From the IMG/VR virus record IMGVR_UViG_3300011936_000008, positions 1 through 48,568 of that record: a stretch of 48,568 nt of DNA; one strand, written 5' to 3'. The stretch is from a virus. Positions 26,338 through 33,414 of this stretch are shown here, in pieces (the first letter of the stretch is position 1; the number at the start of each line of letters is the position of its first letter). Position numbers and translations under genes: made by a program. The notes beneath the pieces are model-generated. The model was not told the DNA's origin. It was given only the letters and a program-made list of their open reading frames with translations, and did not search any database.

Positions 26338-27360
26338 TTACAGAACTTTAGCCTTGAAAGCGGCATCGGGGCTGTACAGGGCGGGCATCGCCACAGAATC
26401 CACAACAATGTCACGCAGGGACGCAACGTTAGGACGCTGAACGATATTAGCCACGATACCCTGACCGTTAACGCCAGTCCAGCCGAGGCTAACAGCGGTC
26501 ACGGTTCGAGAGAACACGGTCTCGCCGAGAATACGGTTATCGGTAGGCGGAAGCAGGAAGATGCTGTCGTTATCCAGAACATCCACCGGGCCGTCATAAG
26601 TGTTCACCTGACGGTCGTACAGGGTAACCTGCGGGAGCAACTGGCCGGCGAGGATGCTGTTCACTTCCTCAAGTGTTGCGGGGCGGTACCCATCACCAAT
26701 CTTGGTAGCAAACTGAGTGCTGGTCTGGATAGCCAGGAACACGCGGGTAGACATCACCATAGCGCCGGGGTAGAAGCCGTTGAGCTTCTTGTATGCCTGG
26801 CGGAGCTTAATCAACTCCTGCAGGATGTTGGTGCCCGCAGCATCAAACTTAGCCGCCACGGTCACATCCGCCTCAGCAGAGCGACCCCAAACGTCCTCAG
26901 TCACGCCACCGGCTTCGGTCTCAACCAGGAACTTTGCCTTGTTGAGGGTCTGCCCACGCTGGTACTCAAGACGGTCAGCAATCGACTCTACGCCCTGCAT
27001 GACCTTATCCTCAATGGACTTGCGGATAGTGTCGTTGGACTGGATGCGAGCGCGAAGCTGGTCCTTTTCGCCTATGGTGTATTTCTGAGTCAAGGGGATG
27101 TTCTCAAAACGAACAATCTTGACGGGGGGCTGGGTACCACGGCTAGGCTCAGCATCCCAGGCGCGGTTGAACGCCATGACGGGGCGGGTAACCTTGAGGT
27201 CCTTGGTGTTCAGGTCAATGCCCTCAACGTAGCGCTCGGGGAAGAACGAAAGCAGGGAGTTAGCCGCAATCTCCTGTGCCTGAATGTTCTTGTAGTACTC
27301 TTCCGCGAAGCCGGTCAGGTACTCCGGGGTAGCAATCTGGTCCAAATCATAAGTAGACAT
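26338..27360 (-). CDS. Major capsid protein (340 aa)
   Basis: Position after the scaffold gene in the head module; TAATG start/stop coupling with the upstream gene. Confidence 0.7.
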   Translation of the reverse strand: MSTYDLDQIATPEYLTGFAEEYYKNIQAQEIAANSLLSFFPERYVEGIDLNTKDLKVTRPVMAFNRAWDAEPSRGTQPPVKIVRFENIPLTQKYTIGEKDQLRARIQSNDTIRKSIEDKVMQGVESIADRLEYQRGQTLNKAKFLVETEAGGVTEDVWGRSAEADVTVAAKFDAAGTNILQELIKLRQAYKKLNGFYPGAMVMSTRVFLAIQTSTQFATKIGDGYRPATLEEVNSILAGQLLPQVTLYDRQVNTYDGPVDVLDNDSIFLLPPTDNRILGETVFSRTVTAVSLGWTGVNGQGIVANIVQRPNVASLRDIVVDSVAMPALYSPDAAFKAKVL

Positions 27361-27725
27361 TAGTTAGCGCCCTCCATGAAGATAAAGTGCTTGCTATCTG
27401 CGGGCTTCTCCAGAGCAGAACCAGAGGCGAGCTTAGGCAGACGCTTATGAATGATAATTCCCTTGACAACAACCGCTACCTGCTCCGTGCCGGTGGTGTT
27501 GGCGTGGTCGAACAGCAGGAATCCTGCGGGGTCAGCCGCGGCGGGCTTTACCTTGTTGGCTTCGATAGTCACGGGGTAGCCGGACGGTACGCCGTTGTAT
27601 TTCTTGATAACTTCCGCAAAATCTTCGGCGCTGATGGTGAGCGACTGAGCCTCAATCGAAGCGGTCTCACCAGACAACCAAGCCGGGAGGTTGCGGTTAA
27701 TGGTAGTGCTATGCAGATTAGGCAC
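27360..27725 (-). CDS. Hypothetical head protein (121 aa), possibly a decoration/accessory protein
   Basis: Lies between the scaffold and capsid genes; RBS AGAGAGG before GTG 27725. Confidence 0.4.
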   Translation of the reverse strand: MPNLHSTTINRNLPAWLSGETASIEAQSLTISAEDFAEVIKKYNGVPSGYPVTIEANKVKPAAADPAGFLLFDHANTTGTEQVAVVVKGIIIHKRLPKLASGSALEKPADSKHFIFMEGAN

Positions 27726-27736
27726 TTGTAACCTCT

Positions 27737-28696
27737 CTATTTCTTGCTGAACTTAGCTCGCACAGCGGCGGCGCCGGAGGCGAAGCTGTTGTTAGACGCG
27801 TTACCTGTATCGGGCGCGCCATTTAGTGATGGAATGCTAGACGCCTTAGGTTTCATCTGCTCAGTCAGTGTAGCGAGGATACCGTCAAACTTAGCCTGGT
27901 CGAAGTTCCCTTCCGAATCCAAGAACGACGCGGCACCCAAACTATCGAATGCGCTCTGCAAACTCGATAGCCCGTTCGCACTCAGCCCGGCTTGAATCTT
28001 CGACTCCGCAATCTTAGTGGATGCTTTAGCCTTGTAGTCGCTGAACTCATTCTGCAACGCCTCTAGACGGTCAGCTACAGAATCATCTGCATCCTCAGAC
28101 TTGCGACCCTTCTTAGCCCGAGCCTCCCACTCACGTGAGTGGGACTTCCACTGCTCTACCTGCTTAGTCAGATTTTCAATCTGAGATTTCAGGTCTTCCT
28201 CGCTTGTTGAAGGTTCCGAAGCATCCCCTGCGGCGTTCTCCTGAGTAGCCGTTTCGGCGTTCAAGTTCTCACCTTCCGGGGTTTCCTCCGTACCAACGTT
28301 CGCAGACAAATTCTCCTGCGGCATAGTATTCCTTTCATCCCCATTCCGGGGGTTTAGCGAGAACCACCGGCGTATTCCTTCGCGCCGGGACTCTGCATCT
28401 GGCGAGCCGTCCAGCCGTGCATGAAGTTCTTCTTCCGAAGCACCATCAAGCGTGATGACCGAATCAGCCTTTATATATTCCGCAAAACCCTTTCGGTCTG
28501 CGGGGTCTGGTAGCGTGCGGGTAACCCACACGTCTTTCTGGGACCCTTGCAGGTGCAGGCTCTCTTCCAGAGCCGCCCTGAGAACAGAGTCTCCGTCAAG
28601 TAAATCCAAGTCTATAATAGCATCCCCCGGCTTGGCATGGTCTCGAACATATGTACTCTTTCCGCTGGCCGGGGGTCCTGTAATAAGCCGAATCAC
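27737..28696 (-). CDS. P-loop NTPase (kinase-like) domain fused in frame to a scaffolding-protein-like acidic coiled-coil domain
   Basis: N-terminus from GTG 28696 is MIRLITGPPASGKST (Walker A) then IIDLD (Walker B-like). The last 200 aa are acidic and coiled-coil with a Gly/Ser/Ala-rich tail, typical of scaffolds. GTGA overlap with the upstream stop and a GAGGGAG RBS. An internal ATG with RBS AAAGGAA precedes MPQENLS... Confidence 0.55.
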   Translation of the reverse strand: MIRLITGPPASGKSTYVRDHAKPGDAIIDLDLLDGDSVLRAALEESLHLQGSQKDVWVTRTLPDPADRKGFAEYIKADSVITLDGASEEELHARLDGSPDAESRREGIRRWFSLNPRNGDERNTMPQENLSANVGTEETPEGENLNAETATQENAAGDASEPSTSEEDLKSQIENLTKQVEQWKSHSREWEARAKKGRKSEDADDSVADRLEALQNEFSDYKAKASTKIAESKIQAGLSANGLSSLQSAFDSLGAASFLDSEGNFDQAKFDGILATLTEQMKPKASSIPSLNGAPDTGNASNNSFASGAAAVRAKFSKK

Positions 28697-29691
28697 GAGA
28701 CATACTCCCTCGCCTGGCGTTCCCAATACGCAATGCGGTCTTCTAGAACAGATGTTCGATAACGACGCGGCTTAGCGCGCTTACGTCTCAAGGCGGCCAA
28801 TTCATCCTGCGCGTCGATAACCTCTTCTTTAGGTGTGCGCACGTAAGACGCGCGTTCCGCGTCCTCTCCCGATAGTGCGTACTGCTCGTTCTTCGGAGTG
28901 AGACCGCTCTTCGACTTCTCAACACGGCGTGCCAGGGTAGGCCCTCGCTCTCCAGAGACATACTCAGCAATGCGCGTGTTCGATAGTTTGCTGGCGGTAT
29001 TCCCACCTGCAACCCGGTAGATGTAGTCTAGGTCTTCTCGGTTCAGCTTCAAGCCGGGGTCAGATGTGTTCGTGACGGGCAGGGTCTCGCACTTGCAGTT
29101 ATCGTGCAGCGGGTACAGCTGGTTCGTTGAGTACAGACGGTCAGCCGCCACTAGGCAGAGACCGCAGGTACCTGTCTTAGATAACTCTGGGTGTATGATG
29201 CGCCGGTACCCGATAACACCTTGCGGCGCGGCGGCTTCGTACACCCGCGCGGCGCGCTCACGGTTAGCCATGCGAACATCCGCGTCGGCCAGCTGACGGA
29301 CGCGGGATAAGGTCTTGAGCATAGCTTCCTGGTGAGAGTCACCGTTGTTCCGTGCGTTACGGTACTCGCTGACTGGGCGCTCCCACACATCCTCGGGGAG
29401 AATGTTCTTGCGTGGGTACGAGCCATCCCGTGCCGGGGATACGTCCTTGGGGAACTTCTTCCCCTCAGCTTCCAGAGCCTCTTGCAGGAACGCATCAGCG
29501 TCAGCACGGGTTTCGTCCATAATCTCTAGAACCTTCTCGACGGTATCATCCACCAAATCATCCACTGACGCTGACGTGAGAGGGTCCGAGCGCCACCTAG
29601 CGAAAAGCCACTGCACCAGAATCTCAACCAGAGACTTGTTGCGCCGTGACTGCGCGTTAGCCAGCTTCCCATAGAATCCCGAAGTAGCCAC
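28693..29691 (-). CDS. Minor head morphogenesis protein (Mu F / SPP1 gp7-like)
   Basis: Position immediately after the portal; CGLCLV ... HDNCKCE cysteine/histidine motif; basic C-terminus. Confidence 0.55.
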   Translation of the reverse strand: MATSGFYGKLANAQSRRNKSLVEILVQWLFARWRSDPLTSASVDDLVDDTVEKVLEIMDETRADADAFLQEALEAEGKKFPKDVSPARDGSYPRKNILPEDVWERPVSEYRNARNNGDSHQEAMLKTLSRVRQLADADVRMANRERAARVYEAAAPQGVIGYRRIIHPELSKTGTCGLCLVAADRLYSTNQLYPLHDNCKCETLPVTNTSDPGLKLNREDLDYIYRVAGGNTASKLSNTRIAEYVSGERGPTLARRVEKSKSGLTPKNEQYALSGEDAERASYVRTPKEEVIDAQDELAALRRKRAKPRRYRTSVLEDRIAYWERQAREYVS

Positions 29692-31193
29692 TAGACGGCG
29701 CCACCGTTACGTTGGTTCGACAGGTTAGCCTCTGGTGAGGTGTTGTTCAAGACCTGGCGGTTCTTCGGGTCTGGTTCCTGTATGCCGTCAGTGGGTTCTT
29801 CCTGCGCTTGGTTGGCGAGGTTCTGCTGAGCGGTGGCGTTAGCTACCACCAAATCCCGAAGCGCCTGGTTACCCTGCACCCGCTCAACCTCCGCAATATC
29901 CAACGCAGAGAATCCGCCGAACTTACGCAGTGCCACCGTCAGCGGTACGCCCGCAGAGGTAGCAAGCTGGACGGCGGACATGCGTTCGACGTCCGAAGGC
30001 CGCTTCGGGTTCACCCAATCGATATCGATTTTAGTAGCGTCCGCGCGCTCGGAATCCCCGCGTGCCAGCATGGCGTCCGCGAACAGACGACGAAGGGTCG
30101 AAGTAATGCGCATCTCCAGGGACTCAATATCGAAAATCAGCGGCTCGTTCTGCATGGATGCGCCCTCCGCCGAAGACGTGGACGACTCAGGGGAGAGGAT
30201 GTAGAGGGGGGTCTTCGACTCTGCGGCAAGAATCTTGATGTTATCCAGCACGACGTTGCGGATAGGGTTCAAGTCCGTGGCGGAGGACTCCCAAATATCC
30301 ACGCCGTCGGGCAGCATCAACAGCGCGTCCGGTGCGGTCTCGAACATATCTGCCGAGTACTGAATCTCGTTCCCCGCGTTGTCGTATTTCGGAAGGTTCG
30401 AGAGAACAGTCTTACGGAATGCCTGCGTAGCGGCTAGAATGCCCAGCTGCAGGATGGTGTGGTTGATGCGTGCCAGCGTTGGCAGGTGACGGTAGATGAT
30501 ACCGTCACCGTCAGAGAGTTCGTATATCGTGACGGACTCACCCTCTACCGTTACGGGCGCTTCCCACTCCCACTCACCGAGAATCGGAGAGAACTCCGCT
30601 AGGTCGGGGCATGCCCACTCACCGGTGGCCTGGAGAGGAACATTCAACTCTGCTTTCGCCAGACGGTAATACCCTGGACGGGCGAAGAGCATGATGCGGT
30701 GCTTGCGGTCAGAGGATACGTACATGGCTATTGCCGCGACGGTGTTACCCGCCGCGTCACGGTCGCAGTATGTGTGGCTTGGGGGGAGGTGCATCAGCCC
30801 GTCCTCCGTCAGCGCGAGATACCCCTTGCCGGAGGTGAGCGTATCTCGAAGCGCATCTGTCAGTTTCAGTTTGAAATCTGACTCCTGGATGAATGCCTCA
30901 ATCTCGTCATCACCGTCTGCCGAATCATCCAGCGCGGACTGCACGCTGTGTACGCCAATTCGGGGTAGGCGGGAGTCCACCAAGAGACAGGCCGCGTTCA
31001 CGCGGGATTTCTTCTGCAGGTTATACCACGCCCGCTGTACGCCAGCGTTAGTTCCTGAATTATCTGGTAGAGGGATAGGCGCGCGCCCCGAGTACCAGCT
31101 GTTCATGTCCTTGATGTGCTTACGGCGGCGGCTGAGCTGGCCGTACAAAAAATTGATGTACGCCAGGTCTTCTTCAAACGGTTGTATTTCCAA
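29691..31193 (-). CDS. Portal protein (500 aa)
   Basis: Size and position directly after the large terminase gene; acidic C-terminal tail. Confidence 0.75.
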   Translation of the reverse strand: MEIQPFEEDLAYINFLYGQLSRRRKHIKDMNSWYSGRAPIPLPDNSGTNAGVQRAWYNLQKKSRVNAACLLVDSRLPRIGVHSVQSALDDSADGDDEIEAFIQESDFKLKLTDALRDTLTSGKGYLALTEDGLMHLPPSHTYCDRDAAGNTVAAIAMYVSSDRKHRIMLFARPGYYRLAKAELNVPLQATGEWACPDLAEFSPILGEWEWEAPVTVEGESVTIYELSDGDGIIYRHLPTLARINHTILQLGILAATQAFRKTVLSNLPKYDNAGNEIQYSADMFETAPDALLMLPDGVDIWESSATDLNPIRNVVLDNIKILAAESKTPLYILSPESSTSSAEGASMQNEPLIFDIESLEMRITSTLRRLFADAMLARGDSERADATKIDIDWVNPKRPSDVERMSAVQLATSAGVPLTVALRKFGGFSALDIAEVERVQGNQALRDLVVANATAQQNLANQAQEEPTDGIQEPDPKNRQVLNNTSPEANLSNQRNGGAV

Positions 31194-31197
31194 AGTA

Positions 31198-32943
31198 TTA
31201 CCTCAATCGCATAGGGGCGGCAGATTCACGAGCCGGGGCTATAGTGTGCCCCTTCGCGCTCACGCGTAGCTTAGACTGATACGCCAGCATGAGAGCGTAA
31301 GCCGCGTCAATCTTTCGCGCGGACGACGGCGACTCCTTATACATGATTCTACCTGCCTTTGTCTCTCGGTACTGAGCGTTATTGAGGTGACGCATCAACA
31401 CGCCGGGGCCTGTCAGCTTCACCTCACGTTCGTACAGGGCAACCCGCAGAGAGCGCGTGGATTCGGCGACCCTGTTCAGTTGGTTACCTCTCCATAGCAT
31501 GGAACCAAACCCATACTTCGAGCCCCGTCGTGCTGATGCTCGCTTCGCGTTAATAAGTGACTCCCACTCAGCGGCTAGTGACTCCCACCCTGCGGGGTCG
31601 AACAGACCATCAACCACGTTGAAGTCCTGGATAAACTTCCGCATCACGTCGTCAATCTCTGCTCGGGGTGGCTCCCAGCCACGACCGGATTCGTCGTCCG
31701 GTTGTTCCCAGACACGCACAGCCCATGCCAGGCCATCAGATACCCTCATGGCTACAATAGCCGTAGCGTCGGTAACGCCGCGCGAGCGACCCCAAGAGCC
31801 GTCGAAGCCCACCACCAGCATGTCTTGCCGGGTGATGGGGTCGATACCGGAGGCTTCCAGGTTCTCGTGGGTCGTGGCTTGCAGAACGTCATACGGGATG
31901 AACGCATCAGCCGAAGCGTGCGGCTTGTTACCGAAGTACCGAGCCGCGTCTGATAGCGTCGTGGCGGGGTCGAACACATCATCCAACACACCATTGATGC
32001 GCACCCACCCACCGGGATAGGGTGAGCCTTCAACACCGCAGGGTGGGGTGTGAATCTTGCATCCGGTGGGGGACTTTAACGAATCCCCGTAGGCGTGCTC
32101 AAGTCCAGAAATGATGCTGGACGGGTCGGACAAGTCAGGGTCTCCCCAGTCCCTAGTGTCATAGAGGATGTTGTTACGGAACGACTCTCCGGCCATACCC
32201 TTCTGCCACGCATTCCAGGTCTGCTCTGCGAAAGAGCCTTCCCCAGGCACGAATGCGTTCGGGGCTTCCAGCAAAGTTCCGTCCGCCTTCGACAGGTTTC
32301 GCTTCGCTACCGCGCCGAGACGGTCGCCGCCGTTTGACGGTACCCATGTCTCCGTCTGGTCGGCAATCGTGAACTGGTTCGGCTTACCCTCAAGCGAGCG
32401 GGCCGAGGATGTACGCGGCGCAATAAGCCCATTGTGGGGTAACAGAATACGGGTCTCCATCACTTCCACGCCGGGGTATTCCCAGAGAAGATGCTCTGAC
32501 GACATCATCTCCTTCATAGGCTCGAAGGCGTTTCGGGTCTGCTCTTCCGAGACGGCAAGCAAGGTGATTTCTACTTTTCGCTCCGCGTTCCAGGGCTGCC
32601 CAACAGGTCGTCCGTTTGAATCCCATCCCGCGAAGCGGCATGGGCCGAGAGCCTCGAAGGCGGCAATCGCGGCTAGGAACGGACTCTTCCCCCATCCTTT
32701 TGGACGCTGTATAACACCACGCCGGTACACACGCTCCCCTGTGATGGGGTCAATGCGGTACCAACGCAGGATGAACTCAGCCTGTTCCCGTGTCGGGCGA
32801 AACGGTTCATCCCACGTGACGGTGGGGCGGGACAAGTACGTCTCCATCCACTCAAGGGCAATATACCCAAGAGTAGGCACCTCCCCCTTGTATCGTGGCT
32901 TGAATCCCGCACGCACTGGGGCGTTAGCGAATGTATCAATCAT
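31198..32943 (-). CDS. terL: Terminase large subunit
   Basis: Walker A-like RPKGWGKSPF in the N-terminal ATPase; C-terminal RNaseH-like nuclease region VVGFDGSWGRSRGVTDATAIVA; 581 aa. Confidence 0.85.
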   Translation of the reverse strand: MIDTFANAPVRAGFKPRYKGEVPTLGYIALEWMETYLSRPTVTWDEPFRPTREQAEFILRWYRIDPITGERVYRRGVIQRPKGWGKSPFLAAIAAFEALGPCRFAGWDSNGRPVGQPWNAERKVEITLLAVSEEQTRNAFEPMKEMMSSEHLLWEYPGVEVMETRILLPHNGLIAPRTSSARSLEGKPNQFTIADQTETWVPSNGGDRLGAVAKRNLSKADGTLLEAPNAFVPGEGSFAEQTWNAWQKGMAGESFRNNILYDTRDWGDPDLSDPSSIISGLEHAYGDSLKSPTGCKIHTPPCGVEGSPYPGGWVRINGVLDDVFDPATTLSDAARYFGNKPHASADAFIPYDVLQATTHENLEASGIDPITRQDMLVVGFDGSWGRSRGVTDATAIVAMRVSDGLAWAVRVWEQPDDESGRGWEPPRAEIDDVMRKFIQDFNVVDGLFDPAGWESLAAEWESLINAKRASARRGSKYGFGSMLWRGNQLNRVAESTRSLRVALYEREVKLTGPGVLMRHLNNAQYRETKAGRIMYKESPSSARKIDAAYALMLAYQSKLRVSAKGHTIAPARESAAPMRLR

Positions 32944-32949
32944 GTCGGG

Positions 32950-33414
32950 CTATGCCTCTAACCTCAGCTCGCCGTAGGTAGCGTTACCCTCTACGTGCCG
33001 TGGGGTGGGGGCTTTCTGCGTATGCTCCGCCAGCCTGCGTTGCAACTCTTCTGCAGTAAGAAGCTCTATCTTAGCCCCTGCGATAGACTTCGGCGACAAG
33101 ATGAACTCGCGCGCACTGGAGACAGCAACCTCAACGGAACGTAAAGTGGATACCCCGCTCTCGAACTTACGCGCCGCCTCTTCAATGGGCATGATGACGG
33201 ATAGGATGAAGAACTGCCATTGAGTCTTCGTAAGGTTCTGCAGAGTCGGGTGCTCCTTGAGAGAGTCCCAGAACTCTACAGTGAACGCGTGCCAGTCAAA
33301 GTAGTCGGGCAGTTCAGGCTGTGGTACGGGGCGGTATTCCAGCGGCGTAGCCTGGACGACCTCATACTGTCCTCGCTTACTGCGGGTGCTCTTGTTATTC
33401 CCCTTGCCGGGCAT
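32950..33414 (-). CDS. terS: Terminase small subunit (154 aa)
   Basis: Lies immediately upstream of terL in the late operon; size typical. Confidence 0.55.
   Translation of the reverse strand: MPGKGNNKSTRSKRGQYEVVQATPLEYRPVPQPELPDYFDWHAFTVEFWDSLKEHPTLQNLTKTQWQFFILSVIMPIEEAARKFESGVSTLRSVEVAVSSAREFILSPKSIAGAKIELLTAEELQRRLAEHTQKAPTPRHVEGNATYGELRLEA

Follow-up and report, generated by a model that had tools for sequence, protein, structure and literature searches.

Phage scaffolding proteins are, to our knowledge, seen solely as assembly chaperones that lack any enzymatic part, and the question raised by the locus described here is why one of them should begin with a nucleotide-binding domain. 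The window analyzed, positions 1 to 48,568 of the IMG/VR virus record IMGVR_UViG_3300011936_000008, is a complete phage genome of 48.6 kb. A single open reading frame (ORF) in its head module (27737-28696, on the minus strand, as are all features of the window given below) encodes a protein of 319 aa (34.4 kDa), which comprises a P-loop kinase-like domain, a linker and a scaffolding protein. A sequence-only reading of this DNA had described the ORF, its GTG start at 28696, the Walker A motif GPPASGKST, a hhhhD motif (AIIDLD) and an internal ATG with AAAGGAA before it (AAAGGAA-TACT-ATG) at MPQEN, and all of these are present where it had placed them. Nested head genes and capsid-loaded enzyme fusions are both known kinds of arrangement; what is new here is a widespread, unannotated kinase-like domain on a scaffold. 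The ORF is read as a nested two-product head-assembly gene whose fusion product co-assembles with the scaffold and puts the nucleotide-binding domain inside the procapsid, an interpretation to which we give about an even chance.

The fusion in frame to the scaffold, as proposed in the sequence-only reading, was conserved at full length. The same continuous ORF was found in more than 100 metagenomic relatives with 57-100% identity, all from independent assemblies of ~48-50 kb (ENA, Logan, JGI and NCBI), and also in the distant lineages L012, L017, L027 and L043. Between the two main clades, the N-terminal domain is 79% identical and the scaffold core 56%, while the hypervariable acidic linker that forms the N-terminus of the scaffold (aa 125-165, 28202..28324) is 26-32% identical and changes in length solely through in-frame insertions and deletions. 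Among the 150 nearest clusters at 50% identity, the P-loop is followed by the scaffold motif WK..SR.WE in 29 and by other long C-terminal extensions in a further 16; phrog_4708 is matched by 31 of these 45 extensions, and most of the remainder match other scaffold PHROGs. At least 31 diverged protein clusters share the kinase-scaffold architecture, and a kinase-like nucleotide-binding domain has been kept in frame with a scaffold across dozens of diverged phage lineages.

All matches of the domain family in bacterial genomes fall in Actinomycetota, indicating that the family belongs to actinobacterial phages and prophages. The fused architecture is not rare and occurs widely among actinophage-like genomes that are uncultured. 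Megablast and tblastn searches with the region and the protein returned nothing from 50,697 deposited phages, and when the relatives P0153 and P0124 were used as queries against deposited phages, only the N-terminal domain or only the scaffold part was matched (coverage at most 40%), with no fused architecture. In L057, L058, L060 and L075, long "extensions" at the N-terminus matched no family and were set aside as probable longest-ORF artefacts in GC-rich DNA.

For the N-terminal domain (aa 1-124, 13.7 kDa, 28325..28696), 470 relatives were retrieved when 1.84 billion cluster representatives were searched exhaustively with phmmer, and 147 of them made up the family alignment used for conservation, the profile and AlphaFold. 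With these 147 rows, the domain was predicted to fold into four strands and five helices with a pLDDT of 91.9; it had been refolded in this way because the full-length prediction, made with an 11-row alignment, gave an unusable pLDDT of ~30 for this part. The top structures returned by Foldseek for the model were shikimate kinase and the polynucleotide kinases CthPnkp of Clostridium thermocellum (4gp6/4jt2), Pnkp1 (4xrp) and T4 PNK (1ly1), with a probability of 1.0 and TMq values of 0.55-0.67, and adenylate and dephospho-CoA kinases were also among its neighbours. The family profile matched AK8 (5.5e-9), CthPnkp (1.5e-5) and T4 PNK (1.8e-4) in the PDB across the whole domain, and the profile was required for this, as single-sequence phmmer against the PDB gave no match for the domain. 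On the window protein, Pfam AAA_33 scored 22.7 bits (E 1.4e-4) over aa 4-44 only, below the gathering cut-off of 27 bits, and NCBIfam gave P-loop-level noise only; the relatives P0125 and P0127 carry precomputed AAA_33 matches. Profile, AlphaFold model and Foldseek together agree with the kinase-like, AAA_33-style P-loop domain that had been proposed, and the fold is of the AAA_33/polynucleotide-kinase type. A PADLOC match to Csx3 (E 0.0028, 30 residues) was judged to be due to chance.

The Walker A motif GPPASGKST (aa 7-15, 28652..28678) contains the residues G7, G12 and K13, which are invariant in the 147 family members, and the positions conserved in at least 90% of them (P8, P9, D25, D29, D31, W57, R94 and W111) are all occupied by the conserved residue in the window. 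D29 and D31 are part of the strand beta2 motif AIIDLD (aa 26-31, 28604..28621). In polynucleotide kinases the general-base Asp follows beta2 (D35 in T4 Pnk, D38 in CthPnkp), and D31 aligns with that of CthPnkp in the profile alignment to 4gp7, a correspondence based on alignment. In the same kind of alignment, R94, within HARL (aa 92-95, 28412..28423), falls on the lid Arg of polynucleotide kinases. The "hhhhD" motif that had been called Walker B-like is therefore real as a motif (AIIDLD), but the label did not hold, since it occupies the beta2 acceptor/general-base Asp position, which is not that of a classical Walker B. Strand beta3 (VWVTR, aa 56-60, 28517..28531, with the nearly invariant W57), for which the family consensus is WVIR, ends with Thr-Arg in place of the acidic Walker-B residue, as compared with VVDAT in CthPnkp and WILDG in AK8. 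By these models the N-terminal domain is a strongly constrained P-loop fold of the kinase type, with a predicted atypical metal site. Literature searches returned no biochemical data on any member of the domain family.

The remaining 195 aa (125-319) match the scaffolding families phrog_4708 (E 1.1e-5) and phrog_9857 (E 2e-4), and Pfam Phage_scaffold gave 16.5 bits against a cut-off of 35. This part also shares 26% identity (E 2e-10) with the product of the free scaffold gene in the related genome L005, a gene that itself has a weak match to PF06810. It is acidic (pI 4.66) except for its last 30 aa, which are basic (pI 10.3), and the full-length AlphaFold prediction places long helices at 166-197, 205-240, 244-281 and 304-317. 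The gene lies between the portal/minor head genes and the major capsid gene, the position expected of a scaffold. The PHROG matches, the acidity and the helical prediction are consistent with the acidic coiled-coil scaffold that had been suggested downstream of the P-loop domain. The motif WKSHSREWEARAK (aa 183-195, 28112..28150) is common to the fused and separate scaffolds of this group, and the basic C-terminal tail SFASGAAAVRAKFSKK (aa 304-319, 27740..27787) is also conserved; by analogy with the P22 scaffold, the tail would be the capsid-binding end.

The start of the whole ORF is well defined, as its GTG and the TGA stop of the MuF-like gene upstream share the sequence GTGA (28693..28696), an arrangement for translational coupling that is found as ATGA at the same place in L002, L003, L005, L012, L013 and L007 and is preserved in one form or the other in all lineages examined. 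An upstream TTG at 28726 was rejected as the start because it lies within the MuF-like gene and all relatives begin at the ATGA/GTGA overlap. A second start is found inside the ORF, where an in-frame ATG (Met125, MPQEN, 28322..28324) is preceded, four nucleotides (TACT) upstream, by the Shine-Dalgarno (SD)-like motif AAAGGAA (28329..28335). The internal ATG with its own ribosome-binding site, as noted in the sequence-only reading, exceeds chance expectation: the genome background holds 1.15 in-frame ATG codons per 1000 codons that follow an SD of 5 nt or more, while a Met is found at the boundary in 28 of 29 fused cluster representatives against ~12 expected. This Met is usually preceded by purine-rich codons rich in Lys, Glu and Asp, and the SD and ATG are preserved in every fused lineage examined. 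The codon register in which the AAAGGAA motif is read differs between the window and L002, which together with the boundary Met count and the low genome background supports selection on the DNA signal itself.

The origin of this signal is suggested by the syntenic relatives L005, L013 and L007, in which the P-loop and scaffold are encoded by separate adjacent genes (P-loop genes of 129, 131 and 124 aa and scaffold genes of 188, 203 and 198 aa, respectively). The head module of L005 is orthologous to that of the window. The junctions of the split forms read GAAAGG-TAA-TC-ATG in L005 and GAAAGG-TAG-AAGCTA-ATG in L013, and those of the fused forms read GAAAGG-TTA-TAC-GAA-ATG in L012 and GAAAGG-AAT-ACT-ATG in the window. 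In L005 and L013, GAAAGG encodes the terminal Glu-Arg of the P-loop protein and is the sole ribosome-binding site available to the scaffold gene; the fused forms retain GAAAGG and the ATG, with a sense codon in place of the stop. By this comparison, the internal start at MPQEN is the ancestral start of the scaffold. The nested ORF (27737..28324) would yield a scaffold-only protein of 195 aa and 20.7 kDa, and such a 21-kDa product from Met125 is considered highly likely; the sequence-only reading had raised it as a possibility, and the correspondence of Met125 with the start of the separate scaffold gene in the split relatives strengthens that view.

The three split relatives differ in the register of the scaffold start relative to the P-loop stop, which is +2 nt in L005 (5340-5420), in frame in L013 (5340-5430) and an overlap of the two as ATGA in L007 (690-760). 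These three registers indicate that the boundary between the P-loop and scaffold genes has often been remodelled, with GAAAGG kept in L005 and L013.

Sequence comparison shows that a small polynucleotide-kinase-like gene, normally located between the MuF-like and scaffold genes, has lost its stop in the window and is read in frame into the scaffold, with the scaffold's own GAAAGG and ATG retained. On the favoured interpretation, ribosomes coupled to the MuF-like gene through the GTGA overlap would then produce the 34-kDa kinase-scaffold fusion, and ribosomes initiating at Met125 would produce the 21-kDa scaffold alone, which would serve the bulk of capsid assembly. The fusion would join the scaffold through the shared coiled coil and the basic C-terminal tail, bringing copies of the domain into the procapsid. 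Scaffolds are capsid-interior proteins, and an enzyme-like domain covalently joined to a scaffold has the kind of carrier that is characteristic of capsid-loaded cargo proteins, a class that includes T4 internal proteins, MuF toxins and polyvalent proteins. Loading of the procapsid is suggested by engineered systems, in which P22 scaffold fragments bring cargo attached to their N-terminus into the capsid in vivo (PMC9962691). As no recognizable prohead protease is present in the genome, the domain would stay uncleaved and would either exit with the scaffold or stay behind, where it would encounter the incoming DNA and perhaps, later, the next host. Such a design would probably tether an enzyme inside the empty capsid. 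The chemistry is the least certain step; judging from the modelled fold, the domain would most likely transfer phosphate from ATP to a nucleotide or to the 5' end of a nucleic acid.

Several points weigh against this interpretation. Its three parts, namely the two products, the encapsidation and the enzymatic activity, are all things that we infer. The split forms in the orthologous modules of L005, L013 and L007 mean that a covalent link is not essential. The Thr/Arg at the Walker-B Asp position and the presence of only four strands suggest that catalysis by the N-terminal domain may be atypical or absent. Finally, members of the family also stand free beside HNH and terminase genes or are fused to HNH endonucleases, and these partners are not capsid-interior proteins.

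The main rival holds that the domain is a cytoplasmic packaging or head accessory, acting for example on DNA ends together with HNH and terminase, which would work equally well free or fused; the continuous ORF would then be incidental read-through reflecting only the tight translational coupling of neighbouring late genes. It is favoured by the split forms of the syntenic relatives, by the free-standing genes found between HNH and TerS in prophiGD44-1 and near the cos site in Cluster-P-like mycobacteriophages, and by the habit of the domain of being fused to whichever neighbour adjoins it, HNH upstream and protease or scaffold downstream. Its weakness lies in the persistence of the fusion. 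In a FastTree phylogeny of N-terminal domains (142 columns), a supported scaffold-linked clade of 40 clusters was recovered, consisting of 26 with the scaffold motif, nine with other C-terminal extensions and five free, so that the two parts are continuous in 35 of 40 clusters and split in five, despite the hypervariable, indel-rich linker. Over the total length of this clade (27.4 amino-acid substitutions per site), 18-82 stop-creating substitutions would be expected under neutrality in the 13-24 codons that separate the domain from the internal ATG, with the neutral nucleotide rate set equal to the amino-acid rate, which is assumed to be conservative. Since only five of 40 clusters are split where many more stop gains would be expected, continuity of the ORF looks to be selected, and the fusion itself to be maintained. 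Two of the three split forms examined are also out of frame with the scaffold, which argues that repeated re-fusion is not easy. The estimate of stop gains is rough, resting on a short alignment and a fast tree method and assuming that the segment before the ATG is dispensable, and it too belongs among the cautions against the favoured interpretation. Incidental read-through is regarded as possible rather than probable.

The occurrence of the same domain family on other partners bears on these explanations. Members of the family are fused to the N-terminus of HK97-type prohead proteases (phrog_9644), which account for 16 of 26 C-terminal extensions in IMG/VR loci, and P0221 and P0185 carry the same P-loop domain on a prohead protease. 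The prohead protease is another procapsid-interior protein, and its recurrence as a partner speaks for the favoured interpretation. In the N-domain tree, the seven protease-fused representatives group with free-standing forms in a well-supported clade of 29 members, apart from the scaffold-linked clade. The family is also fused to the C-terminus of HNH endonucleases, and phrog_4581, labelled "terminase small subunit", consists of HNH plus this P-loop family. One small domain thus has three partners that serve packaging or assembly, namely the scaffold, the prohead protease and the HNH nuclease. The metagenomic protein P0185 (569 aa) is organized as a P-loop domain (1-142), a middle part (133-303) with matches to phrog_24711 and to the C-terminal region of a PHROG labelled "RNA ligase", and a prohead protease (333-557); its kinase-like and ligase-like pairing is reminiscent of RNA-repair enzymes.

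Free-standing members of ~130-150 aa are present in cultured actinophages, namely BigNuz 82, Phayonce 77 and ThulaThula 80 (Mycobacterium), McGonagall 27 (Gordonia) and prophiGD44-1 gene 40, with 26-32% identity in tblastn (E 1e-6 to 3e-4). These genes sit in the late packaging operon, either after HNH and before the terminase genes or at the cos end. The order in prophiGD44-1 is HNH, P-loop gene, small ORF, TerS, TerL, portal and protease, and in Cluster-P-like mycobacteriophages the P-loop gene is at the cos-proximal right end. Members of the family and HNH plus P-loop fusions are labelled "polynucleotide kinase" or "HNH endonuclease" in the GenBank originals, whereas RefSeq labels several of them "terminase small subunit" (NC_023692.1 for BigNuz 82, NC_028796.1 for Phayonce 77, NC_051738.1, NC_030912.1 and NC_019486.1). 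This last label, in PHROGs and RefSeq, is probably an annotation error that has spread. A small-terminase role for the P-loop domain was rejected here, as the genome has its own TerS (PF25673, 32950-33414) and phrog_4581 is HNH plus P-loop.

A wider form of the favoured interpretation is natural encapsidation in actinobacterial phages, in which a polynucleotide-kinase-like enzyme would ride on the scaffold, or in other lineages on the prohead protease, and act on the packaged DNA end or be ejected into the next host; taken in this broad form, it seems rather unlikely. If it were true, the ejected enzyme could repair or modify nucleic-acid 5' ends before phage gene expression, for example countering nuclease-based defence. 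T4 Pnk counters such defence by acting on cleaved tRNA.

A second rival makes the domain a regulator of assembly and not a cargo, controlling the scaffold through ATP-dependent oligomerization, portal incorporation or scaffold exit. The linkage of the domain to assembly chaperones (scaffold, protease) speaks for it, as does its conservation: between the window and L005, the domain and the MuF-like protein are better conserved than the rest of the head module, at 48-52% identity as compared with 26-30% for the scaffold and capsid proteins. In fold and conserved residues, however, the domain matches small-molecule and polynucleotide kinases and not chaperone ATPases, and those members that are HNH-linked or free-standing lack a scaffold that they could regulate, making this explanation improbable. 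According to a third rival, the domain is an inactive pseudo-enzyme kept as an N-terminal scaffold or interaction module, capable at most of nucleotide binding. The missing acidic residue at the Walker-B position, the small size of the domain (124 aa and four strands against 150-180 aa in characterized kinases) and the score of the window protein below the AAA_33 cut-off all point in this direction, but the P-loop Lys/Ser, the three Asp and the lid Arg are nearly invariant in 147 diverged sequences, which is the pattern of a working active site, and we consider the third rival improbable as well. An assembly or sequencing artefact, or a mis-called ORF joining two genes, for which only the existence of split relatives could be cited, is refuted by the more than 100 independent assemblies and the four distant lineages with the same ORF, and is excluded for practical purposes. 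A complex prediction between the coupled, co-conserved MuF-like protein and the P-loop domain scored 0.00 and was used neither for nor against any explanation.

Compared with known systems, the closest parallel to the nested two-product reading is lambda C/Nu3. In lambda C/Nu3 and P2 gpO, head-assembly genes are nested in frame and the scaffold is also made alone from an internal start. Like the window ORF, C/Nu3 combines an N-terminal enzyme part with a C-terminal scaffold and an internal in-frame scaffold start, and both are flanked by the portal gene on one side and by the decoration and E-type capsid genes on the other. In the window, however, the N-terminal part is a P-loop kinase-like domain instead of a protease, and the two products are a prediction. 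In the protease-fused members of the family, as in the window, the P-loop stands at the N-terminus of a procapsid-interior assembly protein, with protease as the partner there and scaffold here. The polynucleotide kinases CthPnkp (4gp6/4gp7/4jt2), T4 Pnk (1ly1/1ltq) and Pnkp1 (4xrp) share the P-loop kinase fold, Walker A, beta2 Asp and lid Arg with the window domain, which differs from them in being only 17-23% identical, shorter and four-stranded, in ending beta3 without an Asp and in having neither a phosphatase nor a ligase domain as partner. The actinophage "polynucleotide kinase" genes belong to the same domain family but are free-standing and not fused to a scaffold.

The engineered P22 scaffold-cargo proteins resemble the window ORF in that the cargo is at the N-terminus of the scaffold and the C-terminal coat-binding end is kept. 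They are man-made, use truncated scaffolds and encapsidate enzymes in vivo, whereas the arrangement in the window is natural and includes a full-length scaffold, with encapsidation presumed. The window ORF would thus be a natural counterpart of these constructs and a protease-free analogue of lambda C/Nu3. Literature searches found no description of a P-loop/kinase-scaffold or kinase-protease fusion. Once worked out, the role of the domain would add a missing player in head assembly or DNA packaging in a large group of actinobacterial phages and correct a recurrent annotation error.

The head module of the window, in its order on the minus strand, consists of TerS, TerL, portal, MuF-like protein, kinase-scaffold ORF, a cement-like protein of 121 aa and an E-type capsid protein. 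The small terminase gene TerS (32950-33414; PF25673, Pfam Terminase_7, 34 bits) adjoins the large terminase gene (31198-32943) on its upstream side, followed by the SPP1-type portal (29691-31193, PF05133), the MuF-like minor head protein (28693-29691, phrog_1522), the kinase-scaffold ORF, the 121-aa gene (27360-27725), with weak matches to Phage_cement PF22758 (18.5 bits) and phrog_909, and the lambda E-type major capsid protein (26338-27360, PF03864). Between the window and L005, the identity is 52% for the MuF-like protein, 48% for the P-loop domain, 30% for the capsid protein and 26% for the scaffold.

In SPP1, the head module runs TerS, TerL, portal gp6, MuF-like gp7, scaffold gp11, decoration gp12 and capsid gp13, and has no protease. 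The window shares this gene order, the SPP1-type portal (PF05133) and the lack of a protease, while the SPP1 scaffold has no P-loop domain and the capsid protein of the window is of the lambda E type (PF03864). No prohead protease of the S78, S49 or ClpP type was recognized across this complete genome with its lambda-E-type capsid protein, and the module accordingly resembles protease-less assembly of the SPP1/P22 type, in which scaffolds exit intact (PMC3185693).

A few minor observations were made in the same region. The 121-aa gene (27360-27725) occupies the position of lambda gpD, between the scaffold and capsid genes, and probably encodes a decoration or cement protein. The best PHROG of the TerS gene (32950-33414) is phrog_226, labelled "minor tail protein", which looks like a problem of the PHROG label. 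The MuF-like protein has no Pfam match and contains an invariant Cys/His cluster (HPE.S..G.CGLC ... H..C.C) that looks zinc-binding. Elsewhere in the window, an apparent terminal repeat was found to be a tandem repeat within a gene.

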